A stretch of DNA of 44,509 nucleotides from contig MFTH01000003.1 of the NCBI GenBank assembly GCA_001786765.1, positions 1 through 44,509 on the forward strand, read 5' to 3'. Origin of the DNA: Candidatus Nomurabacteria bacterium RIFCSPHIGHO2_01_FULL_37_25 (GTDB taxonomy: Bacteria > Patescibacteriota > Minisyncoccia > Phycocordibacterales > UBA9973). Every line of letters starts with the position of its first letter. The stretch's first letter is position 1. Made by a program: the position numbers and the translations under genes. Of the stretch, positions 8,877-44,434 are shown one piece after another. The notes under the pieces are model-generated. The model had not been told where the DNA came from. It saw only the letters and a program-made list of their open reading frames with translations, and did not search any database.

Positions 8877-9119
8877 ATATTTATTTTTTAATTTTTCTTT
8901 ACCATATCCTGATTTCCAATATTTTTCTCTGCTTCTCGCATAAGTTCTATTTGTCCCAGTTTTTTCAAAAAATATCTGAACCCAAGGACGAAAACCTTTT
9001 GTAGAAAAAACTTTTCCATTATTATGTTCCAACAATCTTTTTCCTGGGTTTTGGCTCATACCTACATAAATTCTATCGTCCTTTGTGCTTTTAATAGCAT
9101 AAACAAAAAATTCTTTCAT
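8856..9119 (-). CDS. Stand-alone GIY-YIG nuclease
   Basis: FVYAIKS...IYVGMS...RLLEHN...AR-REKYWK motifs; the last codons (SGVAQW*) lie inside the tRNA 5' end. Confidence 0.9.
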   Translation of the reverse strand: MKEFFVYAIKSTKDDRIYVGMSQNPGKRLLEHNNGKVFSTKGFRPWVQIFFEKTGTNRTYARSREKYWKSGYGKEKLKNKYSGVAQW

Positions 9120-22714: not shown

Positions 22715-23644
22715 TTAGTTTTGTTTCTGGAATTCTGTGTAAGATATTTCTTTTTTGCCTTCCGGTAAGACTTTTTCTATAACGAATTTACTATTTTCTA
22801 ATTTAGCTTTAGTGATTATGATACGCCTAGTTTGAAACCCGCCTTCGCCAAGGCTTCGGCGGGCAAGAAAGAAAGTCCTAGGCCAAACGGCGTATGCTCT
22901 AAATTTGTTGTAATTTAAAATTCCATCGTCATTTAAATTAATAAGTCCCTCTTCTTTTTTTATTTTTTTACAAAACGTTACTTCTTTTTCATCTTGCGGT
23001 ATTGTCTTGATTTTACCTTCAATAAATTCTGGCAGAATTTTTACTAAAAGTTCTCCACCAATTTTTATTAAGCGCTTGCGTAAATCTCCCGCTTTTTCAT
23101 CATTACCTATTTCAATTTTTTCTTGCGCGATGATATCGCCAGCATCCATTTTATATATCATCTTTTGAATAGTTATTCCTGTTTCTGTATCTCCATTCAA
23201 TATAGCGGACTCTACCGGCGAAGCTCCGCGATATTTTGGCAACAGAGAATAATGCGCATTTATTGAACCTAATTTGGGAATATTTAATATATTTTCGGGA
23301 ATTATTTTTCCATACGCGACAACTAAGAAGAAATCTGGAATATTTTGCTCACCACGAAAATTTTTTGCTAAAAATTTTCTCTGTCCGTCGCCGCCCTTCC
23401 TACCAAGGGTTCTCAAAACATTCCAGATTTCTTCTTTCTCTAATTTTTTTGGTTTCAAACAGGTGATATTATTTTGCTCAGCAAAAAGAGCAACGGGTGA
23501 AGCTTCTACGCGCAAACCTCTACCTTTAGGAGCGTTAGGCGAAGTGACAATAAGCGATGGTATAAGCCCATTTTGTTTTAAAATCTCCAAGGTTTCGCTT
23601 GCTACATCCGGCGTTCCCCAAAATATGAAATTTATTTTATTCAT
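22715..23644 (-). CDS. fmt: Methionyl-tRNA formyltransferase with two in-frame palindromic inserts
   Basis: FWGTP, VVAYG, HYSLLPKYRGASP, TGITIQKM..MDAG. Confidence 0.95.
   Translation of the reverse strand: MNKINFIFWGTPDVASETLEILKQNGLIPSLIVTSPNAPKGRGLRVEASPVALFAEQNNITCLKPKKLEKEEIWNVLRTLGRKGGDGQRKFLAKNFRGEQNIPDFFLVVAYGKIIPENILNIPKLGSINAHYSLLPKYRGASPVESAILNGDTETGITIQKMIYKMDAGDIIAQEKIEIGNDEKAGDLRKRLIKIGGELLVKILPEFIEGKIKTIPQDEKEVTFCKKIKKEEGLINLNDDGILNYNKFRAYAVWPRTFFLARRSLGEGGFQTRRIIITKAKLENSKFVIEKVLPEGKKEISYTEFQKQN
22838..22863. repeat. 26-bp in-frame hairpin element in fmt
   Basis: CCCGCC-TTCGCCAAGGCTTC-GGCGGG; encodes ARRSLGEGG. Confidence 0.7.
23331..23430. mobile_element. ~100-bp in-frame MITE-like element in fmt
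   Basis: TIR AAATCTGGAAT/ATTCCAGATTT with inner hairpins GAAAATTTTT-TGCT-AAAAATTTTC and CCCTT..AAGGG. Confidence 0.75.
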
Positions 23645-38038: not shown

Positions 38039-38074
38039 TATCTAAGATTTTCGCATATGCGAAAATCTTAGATA
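38039..38074. repeat. Perfect 36-bp palindrome
   Basis: TATCTAAGATTTTCGCAT|ATGCGAAAATCTTAGATA with no loop. Confidence 0.9.
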
Positions 38075-38083
38075 GACTTCATT

Positions 38084-39040
38084 ATGCAAAATCAAATTAA
38101 AATTTTTTGTTTAAAAGAATGGTCAGCTGATTCTATTCAGGGTAAAAAAGATTATGAACTTTTGGATACCGGAGAAGGGGAGAAGTTAGAGAGATTTGGT
38201 CCGCATATTTTCGCGCGACCGTTTGAAGACGCAGTTTGGCCGAAGGCGCTGACAGAGGAATTGCAGAAAACTTGGGAGAATGCAGATGGTAAATTTTGGA
38301 GTGGAAAGACAGGCGCCAAAGCTGGATGGAAGATGTCAAAGAGACACTTTGACAAGTGGGAGATGGAATACAAAGGCATAAAGTTTTGGGCTATGCCGAC
38401 GCCGTTTAGGCATTTAGGATTTTTCCCGGAACAAGCGAGCCATTGGAATTTTATAGAAGATAAAATTTCCGCCTTGACCAGGTCAAGGCGGACAAAAAAT
38501 TCCTTACCAAACTTGCCCGATAGACCAATAAAGTTTTTAAATCTATTCGGCTATACTGGCGTAGCGAGCCTTTTTGCTTTGCGCGCCGGCGCGGAAGTGA
38601 CGCATGTGGACGCTTCAAAACAAGCTCTCACTTGGGCAAAAGATAATCAGAAATTGTCTAATTTAGAAAAATTACCAATGCGCGTAATCGAAGATGATGT
38701 TCTAAAATTTTTAGAAAGAGAAATAAAAAGAGGCAATAAGTATGATGCCGTTATCATGGATCCGCCCAAGTTCGGCCGAGGACCCAAAGGTGAGACTTGG
38801 AAAATTGAAGAAATGTTGCCGAAACTTCTTTCACTTGTGAAAAAAGTTTTAAATAATAAACCGCTTTTTGTAATTCTGACTTCCTATTCGACAGATTCTT
38901 CTGCGCTTTCTTTAGGATATGCGCTTGCTGAGATAGTAACCGATTATGGTGGAAAAGTAGAGGTGGGTGAGCTTTGCGCGCTAGAAAAGTCTAATAATCG
39001 TTTTATCTCGCTTGCTAATACAGCGGTGTGGGGTGTATAA
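38084..39040 (+). CDS. Class I SAM-dependent methyltransferase (RlmI/RlmK-like)
   Basis: LGFFPEQ, LNLFGYTG, HVDAS, IMDPPKFG. Confidence 0.85.
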   Translation: MQNQIKIFCLKEWSADSIQGKKDYELLDTGEGEKLERFGPHIFARPFEDAVWPKALTEELQKTWENADGKFWSGKTGAKAGWKMSKRHFDKWEMEYKGIKFWAMPTPFRHLGFFPEQASHWNFIEDKISALTRSRRTKNSLPNLPDRPIKFLNLFGYTGVASLFALRAGAEVTHVDASKQALTWAKDNQKLSNLEKLPMRVIEDDVLKFLEREIKRGNKYDAVIMDPPKFGRGPKGETWKIEEMLPKLLSLVKKVLNNKPLFVILTSYSTDSSALSLGYALAEIVTDYGGKVEVGELCALEKSNNRFISLANTAVWGV

Positions 39041-41221: not shown

Positions 41222-41304
41222 ATCCCGTTAGAAGCCGCGGTCGCAATAATTATAAGGTTGAATTAAGTAGTCACGGTATGACCGCGACCTGCTTCTAACG
41301 GGAT
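41222..41304. mobile_element. CCCGTTAGA/TCTAACGGG miniature element at the leuS start
   Basis: TIR ATCCCGTTAGAAG/CTTCTAACGGGAT; ATGAA direct repeat at 41218-41222 and 41303-41307. Confidence 0.9.
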
Positions 41305-44300
41305 GAAAGAATACGACCATAAAAAATTAGAGAAGAAATGGCAATCTATTTGGGAAAAAAAGAAAATATATCAAGCTCAAAACTCTTTTAAAAAACCCAA
41401 GTATTATAGTCTAATCGAGTTTCCTTATCCTTCTGGTGATGGGCTTCATGTCGGTCATCCGCGACCTTATATTGGGATGGATGTTATTTCTAGAAAAAGA
41501 AGGATGGAAGGTTTTAATGTCCTTTATCCTATAGGTTGGGATGCTTTTGGTTTGCCGACGGAAAATTATGCTATCAAGACAGGCAAGGACCCGCGAGTTG
41601 TCACTAAAGAAAATACTGATACTTTTCGTGGGCAAATAAAATCACTTGGCATTTCTTTTGATTGGTCGCGGGAGATAAATACGACTGACCCAAAATATTA
41701 CAAATGGACGCAGTGGATATTCTTGCAATTTTTAAAAAAAGGTTTGGCGTATAAAGCCAAAATGACGATCAATTGGTGTCCGAAATGTAAAATTGGTCTT
41801 GCTAATGAAGAGGTTGTCAATAATTCTTGCGAGCGTTGCGGAACGACAGTGGAGAAACGCAAAAAAGAACAATGGATGCTCGCCATTACTAAATACGCAG
41901 ATAGATTAGATAAAGATTTAGATGATGTAGATTATCTTCCTCAAATCAAACTAGGACAAAGGAATTGGATAGGACGGAGCGAAGGGGCAGAGATAGAATT
42001 TAAGATTACTGTGAAACAAAAAAATAATTTTGGCGCCTTCGCCCTCGGAGGCAAAGGACAGGGAACCCACGACGCTCAAAATCATTCTTTTGTTTCGCAG
42101 TCTGTAAAAGTTTTCACCACTCGACCTGATACTATTTTTGGAGTCACATTTATTGCTTTAGCGCCTGAAATCGCGAAAAAACTCACAGGTAAAGATTTTG
42201 GTATTAAGTCAGATGTTGATAGGGAAAATAAACAAAAAATAGGAGTGGATACCGGGCTTGAAGCAAAAAATCCCGCAAATGGCGAAATGATACCTGTTTT
42301 TGCGGTCAATTATGTATCAGCGGAATATGGCACCGGAGCTATTATGGGTGTGCCAGCGCATGACGAGAGAGATTTTGAATTTGCCAAGAAATATAATTTA
42401 CCGATTAAGGAAGTTATTGAACCGGTATTTGTTGATACTGAAGGTATTGACGCGGTGCAAAAAGATAAACCTATGGTAGAACGAGAAGCAATATTGGCTA
42501 TTGTTAAACATTGGTCGGAAGATAAATATCTGGGTCTAAAATGGAAAAAAGTTAATTGGGGAACTTTTATTAGTGGTGGAGTAGAAAAAGGTCAGACATC
42601 TGAACAAGCGGCTAGAGCCGAAATAGAAGAGGAAACAGGCTATTTTAATTTGAAATTAATTAAAACTCTTGGTCGTTATCATAGTAAATTTTTTCATACA
42701 CCAAAAAATGAAAATCGTTTTGGTCATTTTAACACTTTCTATTTTGAGTTAGAAAATGGGAAACAAAATGAAATATCTAAAGAAGAAAAAGAGAAACACG
42801 AAATATTGTGGCTTAGTCCCAAAGAGATAGAGAAATTTTTAACAACAGAAAGTTTGCGTTATAGGTGGAATATTTTACAGGGTTATAAAAAAATATATAC
42901 TGGCAGAGGAATTCTCGTCAATTCAGGTAAATTCTCTGGTATGGATTCGGAGAAAGCAAAGAAAGAAATTATAAAATTTGTTGGCGGGAAAGAAAAAACA
43001 ACTTTCAAACTTCGCGATTGGATTTTTTCAAGGCAAAGGTACTGGGGAGAACCGATACCGGTGATTTATTGTGAAAATTGCCGAGTCGGAAGCCTTGCTT
43101 CCGACAAACGGAAGCAAGGCTTCCGACTGGAAAATGCTGGCTGGATTCCAGTGCCGGAAAAAGATTTACCAGTAGAACTTCCAAAAGTTAAAAATTATCA
43201 GCCGACGGATAGCGGAGAATCACCGCTTGCGAATATTCCAAAATGGGTGAATGTAAAATGTCCGCAGTGTAAAGGTAAAGCTAAAAGAGAAACAGACACA
43301 ATGCCGAATTGGGCAGGTTCTAGCTGGTATTATCTTCGTTATACTGATGATAAAAACAAAAAAGAATTCGCTTCACAGAAAAATCTACGCTATTGGTTAG
43401 GGGTTGACCCCGTTAGAGAAAGGTCGCCCCAAGGTGACCGAAGCACTGCCTCTGGCAGGGCGTTCTCTAACGAGGTTGACCCCGTTAGAGAAAGGTCGCC
43501 CCAAGGTGACCGAAGCACTGCCTCTGGCAGGGCGTTCTCTAACGGGGTGGATTGGTACAATGGGGGAAATGAGCATACGACACTGCATCTTCTATATTCT
43601 CGTTTTTGGCATAAATTTCTTTTTGATTTAAAACTAGTCCCTACTAATGAGCCATATATGAAAAGAACTTCGCACGGACTTATTTTAGCCGAAGGCGGGG
43701 AAAAAATGTCTAAATCCAAGGGCAATGTTATTAATCCGAATGATATTGTGAAAATATATGGAGCAGATACGCTTAGATTGTATGAAATGTTTATGGGTCC
43801 GTTTGATCAGGCGATAGCTTGGAGCGAAGAAGCAATCATTGGCCCGAGGAGATTTTTGGAAAAAGTTTGGAGAATAGGAATGTCAAAGTGTCTCTTTGAC
43901 AAAAAATCACCAATGTCAAAGAGACACTTTGACATTACGAGACTTCTTCATAAAACCATCAAAAAAGTATCCGAAGATATAGAAGAAATGCGTTTTAATA
44001 CAGCAATTTCCGCGCTGATGATACTTGCAACAGAAATGGAAAAAGCTGAAAAGCTAACACCTGAAAGCTATAAGCTATTCCTGCAAATTCTTGCGCCATT
44101 TGCGCCACACATTGCAGAAGAGCTTTGGCAGAATCTGGCTCCCCAAGGTCTCGCCTTTGGCTTTCTTAAAGCGAGACCTTCTTCCTCCAGTATTCATTCC
44201 TCAGCTTGGCCGAAGTGGGATGAGAATTTAATAAAAGATGAAGAAATAAAAATTATAATTCAGATAAATGGAAAAGTTAGAACGGAGATTGTTATACAGG

Positions 44301-44434
44301 CTGATGATAAAGAAGAAGATGTAAAGAAGCAAGCTCTTGCCAATGAAGTTGTTTTGAGACACACAGAAGGCAAAGAAATCAAAAAGACTATTTATGTAAA
44401 AGATAGACTTATTAACATTGTTTTATCAAATTAA
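41303..44434 (+). CDS. leuS: Leucine--tRNA ligase with a Nudix domain insert and several in-frame palindromic inserts
   Basis: FPYPSG, LHVGH, GWDAFGLP, FTTRPDT, RQRYWGEPIP, KMSKS. Confidence 0.97.
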   Translation: MKEYDHKKLEKKWQSIWEKKKIYQAQNSFKKPKYYSLIEFPYPSGDGLHVGHPRPYIGMDVISRKRRMEGFNVLYPIGWDAFGLPTENYAIKTGKDPRVVTKENTDTFRGQIKSLGISFDWSREINTTDPKYYKWTQWIFLQFLKKGLAYKAKMTINWCPKCKIGLANEEVVNNSCERCGTTVEKRKKEQWMLAITKYADRLDKDLDDVDYLPQIKLGQRNWIGRSEGAEIEFKITVKQKNNFGAFALGGKGQGTHDAQNHSFVSQSVKVFTTRPDTIFGVTFIALAPEIAKKLTGKDFGIKSDVDRENKQKIGVDTGLEAKNPANGEMIPVFAVNYVSAEYGTGAIMGVPAHDERDFEFAKKYNLPIKEVIEPVFVDTEGIDAVQKDKPMVEREAILAIVKHWSEDKYLGLKWKKVNWGTFISGGVEKGQTSEQAARAEIEEETGYFNLKLIKTLGRYHSKFFHTPKNENRFGHFNTFYFELENGKQNEISKEEKEKHEILWLSPKEIEKFLTTESLRYRWNILQGYKKIYTGRGILVNSGKFSGMDSEKAKKEIIKFVGGKEKTTFKLRDWIFSRQRYWGEPIPVIYCENCRVGSLASDKRKQGFRLENAGWIPVPEKDLPVELPKVKNYQPTDSGESPLANIPKWVNVKCPQCKGKAKRETDTMPNWAGSSWYYLRYTDDKNKKEFASQKNLRYWLGVDPVRERSPQGDRSTASGRAFSNEVDPVRERSPQGDRSTASGRAFSNGVDWYNGGNEHTTLHLLYSRFWHKFLFDLKLVPTNEPYMKRTSHGLILAEGGEKMSKSKGNVINPNDIVKIYGADTLRLYEMFMGPFDQAIAWSEEAIIGPRRFLEKVWRIGMSKCLFDKKSPMSKRHFDITRLLHKTIKKVSEDIEEMRFNTAISALMILATEMEKAEKLTPESYKLFLQILAPFAPHIAEELWQNLAPQGLAFGFLKARPSSSSIHSSAWPKWDENLIKDEEIKIIIQINGKVRTEIVIQADDKEEDVKKQALANEVVLRHTEGKEIKKTIYVKDRLINIVLSN
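42008..42101. mobile_element. 94-bp in-frame MITE-like insert in leuS
   Basis: Long terminal stem ACTGTGAAACAAAA/TTTTGTTTCGCAGT with inner hairpins. Confidence 0.8.
43084..43128. repeat. 45-bp in-frame hairpin insert in leuS
   Basis: Perfect 20-bp arms AGTCGGAAGCCTTGCTTCCG with an ACAAA loop. Confidence 0.9.
43405..43548. mobile_element. Tandem 2 x 72-bp CCCGTTAGA/TCTAACGGG element in frame in leuS
   Basis: Encodes (DPVRERSPQGDRSTASGRAFSNE/GV)x2; the two units differ by very few bases. Confidence 0.92.
43879..43936. repeat. 58-bp in-frame inverted repeat in leuS
   Basis: Perfect 23-bp arms AATGTCAAAGTGTCTCTTTGACA with a 12-nt loop; the 22-mer also occurs at 38333-38354. Confidence 0.9.
44145..44180. 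repeat. 36-bp in-frame hairpin insert in leuS
   Basis: AAGGTCTCGC...GCGAGACCTT; encodes QGLAFGFLKARP. Confidence 0.8.

Follow-up and report, generated by a model that had tools for sequence, protein, structure and literature searches.

Palindromic elements inserted in genes are known from Rickettsia, where they are called Rickettsia palindromic elements (RPEs; Ogata et al. 2000, 2002, as summarized in PMC10969869). Repetitive extragenic palindromic (REP) sequences and their inverted doublets (REPINs) form a second described system, together with the REP-associated tyrosine transposases (RAYTs; Bertels and Rainey 2011, PMC3116915; PMC3337134), for which the structure of TnpArep, 4ER8, is available (PMC3479197). 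Bacterial MITEs (transposable elements of miniature size with inverted repeats), ERIC and others, have also been described inside genes (Delihas 2007, as cited in PMC10969869). We found no report of palindromic in-frame inserts in Patescibacteria, also known as the candidate phyla radiation (CPR), in the searchable literature. Here we describe the leucyl-tRNA synthetase (LeuRS) gene, leuS, of Candidatus Nomurabacteria bacterium RIFCSPHIGHO2_01_FULL_37_25, an ultra-small bacterium from groundwater. Five palindromic inserts (i1 to i5) interrupt this gene in frame. The gene occupies the last 3.1 kb of a stretch of 44,509 nucleotides of contig MFTH01000003.1, hereafter the window.

It is very probable that leuS has received five separate recent insertions of small selfish hairpin DNA elements, which survived in loops that tolerate them. 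The inserts would be drawn from five sequence families and from at least three mechanistic classes.

Five inserts in a class I LeuRS

The leuS product is a class I LeuRS with catalytic, editing and anticodon-binding domains and an inserted NUDIX domain. The genome that encodes it is 726 kb in 17 contigs, with 36% GC and 90% coding density, and the organisms from which its closest LeuRS orthologues come put it with Nomurabacteria/Paceibacteria. Genes were called as long open reading frames (ORFs) without curated annotation, and host functions were named by eye except for LeuRS, the RAYT-like genes, the GIY-YIG open frames and the insert in IleRS. Numbers with C denote contigs of this genome, those with G other genomes surveyed in the genus, and those with P or L orthologues of LeuRS.

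A first-pass annotation of the window, made from the letters alone, had described leuS as a sink for at least five in-frame palindromes. An inverted-repeat search recovered all five. Their boundaries were then set by alignment with the Thermus thermophilus LeuRS, 14 database orthologues, 12 whole-genome relatives and 119 orthologues. All five inserts are extra relative to the T. thermophilus enzyme, the alignment breaking exactly at each of them, and relative to about 130 orthologues, most of which lack them. The positions are collected in the table below.

All five are strong hairpins, as had been claimed: the arms of i1, i2, i4 and i5 are 88%, 89%, 100% and 92% complementary, i3 has perfect 14-nt ends, and the RNA folding z-scores range from -4.2 to -10.8, with predicted hairpin energies of -26 to -91 kcal/mol. 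Every insert length is a multiple of three and the frame used has no stop codon. Five lengths would all be multiples of three by chance in 0.4% of cases ((1/3)^5), and every orthologue insert examined is also in frame. The HIGH (41447-41458) and KMSKS (43703-43717) motifs lie outside the inserts. The claim that the inserts share no sequence with each other holds in essence, subject to two nuances: a common architecture links i2 to i4, and the ends of i3 are also those of an element at the leuS start codon.

The inserts are not assembly artefacts, because four independent samples yielded Logan contigs that match the window at 100% identity and run through i1, i2, i4, i5 and the point where the two i3 units meet. 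This comparison was run at 99% likeness; the result at 85% was mixed with related species and unusable for insertion polymorphism. A MEGAHIT contig from four samples (L021) matches the window except for one 72-nt i3 unit in place of two (43402-43545), which reflects either a copy-number polymorphism or an assembly collapse. The short-word contigs establish the two-unit junction.

On sequence comparison, i2, i3 and i5 are recent insertions, because sites 2, 3 and 5 are empty in the nearest relatives of the window on the tree. The loop that holds i4 varies in length in all species.

Table. Features of the leuS locus and related elements, with occupancy of the five insert sites among LeuRS orthologues. 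Coordinates are those of the window unless a contig is given.
Feature	Position	Strand	Description	Orthologues occupied	State changes on tree	State changes with shuffled labels
leuS coding sequence	41303-44434	+	1043 aa; ORF; Pfam PF00133, PF13603, PF00293, PF08264; T. thermophilus LeuRS 1H3N, E 8e-179			
Start-codon element	41222-41304	+	inverted repeat and family matches; i3-type ends ATCCCGTTAGAAGC; context			
i1 (site 1)	42009-42101	+	between EFKI and VKVFTTRPD; 93 nt; encodes ..FGAFALGGKGQGTHDAQ..	54/120	31	39
NUDIX domain	42422-42886	+	residues 374-528; PF00293, E 1.5e-12; context, separate from the palindromic inserts			
i2 (site 2)	43082-43138	+	directly after the zinc-knuckle CxxC; 57 nt, 19 aa (RVGSLASDKRKQGFRLENA)	32/120	23	28
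i3 (site 3)	43404-43551	+	just before VDWYNGG; net 2 x 72 nt, 48 aa	39/120	27	33
i4 (site 4)	43879-43936	+	loop between two helices of the anticodon-binding region, before LLHKTIKK; 57 nt	70/120	30	38
i5 (site 5)	44141-44179	+	junction to the C-terminal domain, between ELWQNL and SIHSSAWP; ~39 nt, 13 aa	17/120	16	16
Single i4 hairpin	38334-38354	+	in frame (MSKRHFD) in the adjacent methyltransferase-like gene (function by eye)			
GTLGRSGDDGQRKFSAENFRG family	23325-23436; C8:62272; C10:29197; C13:42623; C13:97388		hosts (by eye) Fmt, RecG, Dus, UvrC, UvrD			

Insert families and candidate mobilizing enzymes

The inverted repeat of i2 (43077/43084-43128/43135) has 27-nt arms with a perfect 20-nt core. 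It consists of a head-to-head doublet of the 17-nt hairpin CGGAAGC-CTT/AAG-GCTTCCG (43087-43103 and 43109-43125), and a direct repeat, GAAAAT, lies around it (43073-43078 and 43130-43135). The hairpin is present in 10 copies in the genome, 8 of them outside i2. The palindrome of i4 has 23-nt arms and is likewise a head-to-head doublet, here of the 21-nt hairpin TGTCAAAG-N5-CTTTGACA (43881-43901 and 43914-43934), encoding the peptide MSKCLFD..MSKRHFD. Nine copies of this hairpin were found in the genome, with none for a reversed-pattern control, and its stem occurs in 18 of the genus's 41 genomes and is missing from 60 other genera of the order. In their sequence architecture both inserts are REPIN-like, each being an inverted doublet of its own REP-type palindrome.

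Three genes of this genome match the Y1 transposase family PF01797, two above the Pfam cut-off and the i2-linked one at 22.1 bits versus 23. They code for an HUH motif, NHFHLL, and a tyrosine motif, SYIHMNAVK, and of the solved structures E. coli TnpArep 4ER8 matches them best (E 0.004). The RAYT-like gene at C10:97347-97973 has an i4 hairpin on both sides. Similarly, the Y1 gene at C7:13184-13915 has an i2 hairpin on both sides and one more in frame within the gene, and a third palindrome lies on either side of the third PF01797 gene. The i4 stem, with genome-specific loops, flanks the C10 orthologues (61-80% identity) in G003, G007, G008, G011, G017, G084 and G090, and in G001 and G086 it is RAYT paralogues that have the i2-type hairpin beside them. 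Inverted doublets spaced 25-28 nt from start to start recur in G003, G094, G005 and G084. The i2 and i4 elements would thus have a candidate enzyme each, and they probably spread as single-stranded hairpins by means of these linked RAYT-type (HUH/Y1) transposases.

Among the i2- and i4-type copies of this genome singlets outnumber doublets. About half of the copies, at least five of the i4 type and at least five of the i2 type, are in frame within long ORFs, and the hosts named are LeuRS, IleRS, PurL, KsgA, TrxR, MurB, a methyltransferase and the RAYT itself. No GTAG or CGTC tetranucleotide tag adjoins the i2 or i4 hairpins. The copy within the C7 gene gives the peptide ..KTEARLPFR.. just after the HUH motif, and a similar arrangement is found in G086:C22. 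Up to 12 RAYT-like Y1 paralogues are encoded in genomes of 0.5-0.8 Mb in the genus (e.g. G003, G014, G007 and G008). In the IleRS of this genome (C11:530-4135) a single hairpin of the i4 type, read in frame as MSKSLFD, immediately follows a conserved WPK; the protein also has an inserted histidine-phosphatase domain (PF00300, E 6e-32).

The third insert is of another kind. It is made of two 68-nt elements (43408-43475 and 43480-43547), each with perfect 14-nt terminal inverted repeats, (A)CCCCGTTAGAGAA, and its repeat region (43400-43548) forms two 72-nt direct units with the ends ACCCCGTTAGAGAA / TTCTCTAACGGGGT. Four-nucleotide duplications separate and flank the elements: TTGA at 43404-43407 and 43476-43479, and TGGA at 43548-43551. 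As the duplicated target falls within GTT GAT (Val-Asp), each unit begins with 'VD', which recurs after the pair. At this site the orthologue P0018 carries i3-type ends around another interior, with TGGA to the left and right. In 14 orthologues site 3 holds a 9-aa 'LG.DP..GG' remnant that looks like the decayed footprint of an i3 element. The element clearly has a sequence target. Classical target duplications are enriched only in two well-defined families with terminal inverted repeats.

Ends of the i3 type also bound two longer copies, at C8:59382-59582 and C5:2373-2573, each with an 87-aa GIY-YIG nuclease open frame (PF01541, E ~1e-17 to 1e-18) and each inside ...ATCCCGTTAGAGAT...ATCTCTAACGGGAT... 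sequence. The leuS insert is a tandem, gene-less relative of these copies, one that duplicates a 4-nt target. Two other small GIY-YIG ORFs, of 91 and 105 aa, are encoded at 8892-9110 of the window (- strand) and at C16:18917-19120, outside a CCCGTTAGAG element and beside tRNA-like sequence. At the window locus the ORF has on either side the stretch TTCCGGGGTAGCTCAGTGGTA, similar in look to the 5' portion of a tRNA gene; the C16 locus has the motif GCCTGGGTAG on both sides and a tRNA-like stretch after the ORF. This suggests that these two ORFs belong to a different element, one that targets tRNA genes.

The insert i1, a long hairpin of RPE-like form, adds 26-31 residues compared with orthologues; its AT-rich 25-nt arms (42008-42101) enclose a 44-nt GC-rich loop with the conserved core of its family. 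It is flanked exactly by a direct repeat matching at 7 of 8 positions (CTGTGAAA at 42009-42016, CTGTAAAA at 42102-42109), and removal of the 93 nt gives EFKI-T-VKVFTT. The genome holds six further copies of the core (C15:2508, C15:3001, C16:37291, C16:46580, C12:10781 and C10:51581). Four of the six are in frame in other genes and three give a FALGxxGQGTH-type peptide, which in the family as a whole is found in LeuRS, twice in MnmA, and in HolB. Thirteen of the 41 genomes of the genus encode the core, around which the outer stems differ from copy to copy. A second RPE-like family, with a core encoding GTLGRSGDDGQRKFSAENFRG, also has copy-specific stems and is read in the same frame in five genes.

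The 36-nt hairpin of i5 (44145-44180, with 13-nt arms) belongs to a low-copy family. No second copy was found in this genome; the pattern search missed the window's own copy, owing to an arm mismatch, and yet recovered the family in four other genomes, where one member is in frame in IleRS. The distant orthologue P0043 has a homologue at this leuS site, set apart by two paired changes, neither of which alters the peptide and both of which are compensated in the stem. Elsewhere in the window, 38039-38074 is a perfect, loop-less 36-nt intergenic palindrome, TATCTAAGATTTTCGCATATGCGAAAATCTTAGATA.

The first-pass suggestion that several repeat families are active agrees with these results, since every insert has relatives in the genome or the genus and candidate mobilizing enzymes for three of the five families are encoded in the same genome.

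leuS as a sink across the genus

To place leuS among other genes of this genome, we counted non-overlapping strong hairpins. There are 144 (160 before merging), versus 7-8 in order-2 Markov shuffles; with this excess and the five folding z-scores, a chance origin of the hairpins is excluded. Most lie between genes or at gene edges, and 33 lie deep within long ORFs, in 25 genes. leuS is the top gene with four of the 33, versus 0.16 expected from its length (Poisson P ~2e-5, ~0.02 when corrected for 719 genes). The other hosts are mostly housekeeping genes: IleRS, LigA, UvrC, UvrD, RecG, MnmA, TsaD, RsmH, Fmt, Dus, IscS, MurB, PrfB and HolB. Of the 76 i4-type hairpins in 18 genomes at least six are in leuS, a gene of about 0.45% of the genome, and of the 35 i1-type cores in the genus three are there.

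Relatives have different palindromes at the same five leuS sites, among them a near-perfect 44-nt palindrome at site 2 in G003. In the leuS of G015 (L004) a hairpin family, CTTGGAAGTCGGACTTCCAAG, with the peptide LGSRTSKL, is found at sites 2 and 3 in the same frame. We mapped occupancy of the sites on a tree of 120 sequences (FastTree topology, insert columns left out). Occupancy has almost no phylogenetic signal, the state changes at each site coming close to their number with shuffled labels (see table).

Families are also exchanged between sites. The window has i1 at site 1 and a REP doublet at site 4, while G015 has a REP at site 1 and an i1-type core at site 4; an i1-type core is also at site 4 in G016 and G018. 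As the two families swap sites between species, tolerance of the sites is favored over targeting specific to a family.

An AlphaFold2 model from a 95-sequence alignment (mean predicted local distance difference test score, pLDDT, 82) has a confident LeuRS core and NUDIX domain. Residues 244-263 (i1), 700-746 (i3) and 948-960 (i5) are coil with pLDDT below 50, and the score dips to 55 at i2 (residues 601-610) and to 62 at i4 (861-870, in a loop between two helices). The inserts are accordingly predicted to be surface loops, mostly disordered, where 'surface' is judged from AlphaFold2 confidence and the Thermus alignment. That only inserts in surface loops survive, as first proposed, is in line with this low-confidence coil, with the other palindromes at the same sites in relatives and with the swap between sites 1 and 4.

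Translation of the inserts is likely, because the frame is kept, family copies in different genes reuse one peptide frame (e.g. FALGxxGQGTH and MSK..FD) and features of inteins or introns were not seen. Intein motifs are missing from the 13-48 aa inserts, the residue after i2 being Gly, and an Rfam search of the inserts gave no intron or ribozyme match, only sub-threshold generic hairpin (miRNA precursor) matches. Putting these observations together, we propose that such elements insert widely and that those which survive are of multiple-of-three length, free of stops and in tolerant peripheral loops. LeuRS would offer at least five or six such loops and so become a recurrent sink across the genus, its inserts being transcribed and translated as extra, mostly disordered and presumably neutral surface loops.

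Several domains of this LeuRS are of note beside the palindromes. The NUDIX domain after the editing domain (pLDDT 94-97) is present in 118 of the 120 orthologues and missing from the Thermus LeuRS, and in some relatives, such as P0009, site 1 holds another NUDIX domain. The leucine-specific domain of the Thermus LeuRS (~581-637) has no counterpart here, residues 798-801 (~43694-43705) running almost straight into KMSKS. Loops that bear palindromes hold whole domains elsewhere: an alpha/beta-hydrolase, DUF559 (restriction-endonuclease-like) and an unassigned 138-aa module, found at site 1 in P0066, P0003 and P0051/L012 and at site 2 in P0104, P0033, P0103, L003 and P0070. An 'NPSPALPEGEG'-type motif opens several of these domain inserts, and in P0083 it makes up a short insert by itself.

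Alternative explanations and comparison with known systems

A number of points weigh against five recent insertions of selfish elements. The GAAAAT repeat around i2 and the 8-nt repeat flanking i1 could each be due to chance, and the copy-specific stems of the i1 family do not fit a simple cut-and-paste unit. Canonical REPs are extragenic, mostly doublets and in many cases tagged with GTAG or CGTC, whereas here at least half are intragenic, singlets dominate and the tag was not seen. The putative pairing of elements with RAYT-like and GIY-YIG enzymes comes from linkage, not activity. The sequencing runs that hold this sequence are DNA metagenomes, with no RNA run among them, and the case for translation is made from the DNA. 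Error in the FastTree topology may account for some of the apparent turnover at the sites, and the enrichment in leuS could partly be an insertion preference beyond tolerance alone.

This last point can be taken further. leuS may be a preferred landing site, with Y1/RAYT-driven REPs and other hairpin elements drawn to structured or single-stranded DNA at a handful of its positions and intragenic REPINs acting as a general, previously unrecognized engine of protein-loop turnover in the CPR, although we regard this as unlikely. By extension, the elements might seed the whole-domain insertions (NUDIX, alpha/beta-hydrolase, DUF559, histidine phosphatase) at the same sites of aminoacyl-tRNA synthetases. 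We looked for inverted repeats bounding large domain inserts, as expected of cargo carried by a hairpin, and found none in the two cases examined.

It is also possible that some or all of the inserts are kept because they are useful, as partner-binding loops of LeuRS or as mRNA or DNA hairpins that tune leuS expression, and we consider this quite improbable. The i5 homologue of P0043 speaks for it, as it keeps both the peptide APQGLAFG.LKARP and the stem through its two paired synonymous changes; however, i5 stem variants exist elsewhere in the family and the paired changes can be family evolution. The loops are occupied in 14-58% of the 120 orthologues, depending on the site, and the clade places whole domains (NUDIX, alpha/beta-hydrolase, DUF559) at the same sites, but occupancy has almost no phylogenetic signal and the inserted sequences vary by species. 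Moreover, i2, i3 and i5 are missing in the nearest relatives, the same families are found in intergenic DNA and in unrelated genes, and the loops are predicted to be disordered.

Very improbable is an origin in place, in which the palindromes were made by replication errors (template switching or snap-back synthesis) and are not mobile. Unique, perfect intragenic palindromes without other copies do exist in this genome, such as one of 42 nt at C16:50863, and the outer stems of the i1 family are specific to each copy. However, all five inserts have relatives at unrelated loci or in other genomes and both arms are extra relative to orthologues, so that for the conserved parts of the inserts this origin is largely refuted. 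Fold-back copying of the flank as the source of the stems was also tried: its 'direct, inverted, direct' signature had no clear excess genome-wide over displaced controls.

Barely credible is that the inserts are present in DNA and yet untranslated. They would then be cut out of the mRNA in the manner of hairpin-guided introns, an RNA-level removal made unlikely by the intact frame of all five, or passed over by the ribosome as happens with the Magnusiomyces 'byp' elements and the phage T4 gene 60 gap. The great stability of all five RNA hairpins, the bypassing of GC-rich mobile hairpins in the AT-rich genomes of yeast mitochondria and the DNA-only runs would suit it, but excised or bypassed inserts have no need to keep frame, while all five and every orthologue insert seen are in frame and open, Rfam matched no intron or ribozyme, and copies of one family share a peptide frame across genes, as expected if the peptide is made.

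With separate insertions of selfish hairpin elements as the most probable account, at least one genus of ultra-small CPR bacteria is subject to rampant insertion of such elements in frame, and the likely mobilizing enzymes for three of the five families, as far as their genomic linkage indicates, are encoded in the same genome. The in-frame intragenic REP-type elements, the presence of five families in one essential gene and the genus-wide recurrence at the same loops are new. The inserts offer a natural experiment that asks which essential-enzyme loops can take 7-48 additional residues, and a RAYT with a 21-nt hairpin is a tractable system for how such elements move. They also inflate and scramble alignments of CPR proteins, should be masked in phylogenomics, and explain some of the 'unusual insertions' frequently remarked on in CPR proteins.

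The closest described systems each share some of these features. Like the RPEs, as summarized in PMC10969869, the elements found here comprise several palindrome families in frame in unrelated housekeeping genes of a small genome, with family-specific peptides and at positions compatible with the protein fold. They differ in their host, a CPR bacterium of the Paceibacteria group, in their length (21-94 nt versus ~100-150 bp), in having candidate mobilizing enzymes and in the five families within one gene. The likeness is one of behavior, in that the elements work like RPEs, and not of membership.

Like REPINs and their RAYTs, the palindromes flank a Y1/HUH gene, each RAYT paralogue has its own REP family, and inverted doublets separated by a short spacer fold into long hairpins. 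By definition REPs lie outside genes, while about half of the copies here are in frame in coding sequences, including essential genes and the RAYT gene. Singlets rather than doublets prevail, and the GTAG/CGTC tag of the REP super-families (PMC3733652) was unseen in this genome. RAYTs are typically encoded once per genome (PMC5581495), in contrast to the multiple paralogues of this genus.

The i3 element is like the MITEs in its terminal inverted repeats, its target-site duplication, its gene-carrying relative and its in-frame position. It is unlike them in that the gene is for a small GIY-YIG nuclease and not a DDE transposase, in its NTGA-like target, and in being a tandem pair in the core of an essential enzyme. 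Lastly, the coding palindromes of Nematomorpha mitochondria (PMC6649704) and the Magnusiomyces 'byp' elements are also hairpin inserts in protein genes of compact, AT-rich genomes. In leuS, by contrast, the inserts are in a bacterial chromosome, belong to dispersed repeat families with candidate transposases and, unlike the byps, keep the frame.

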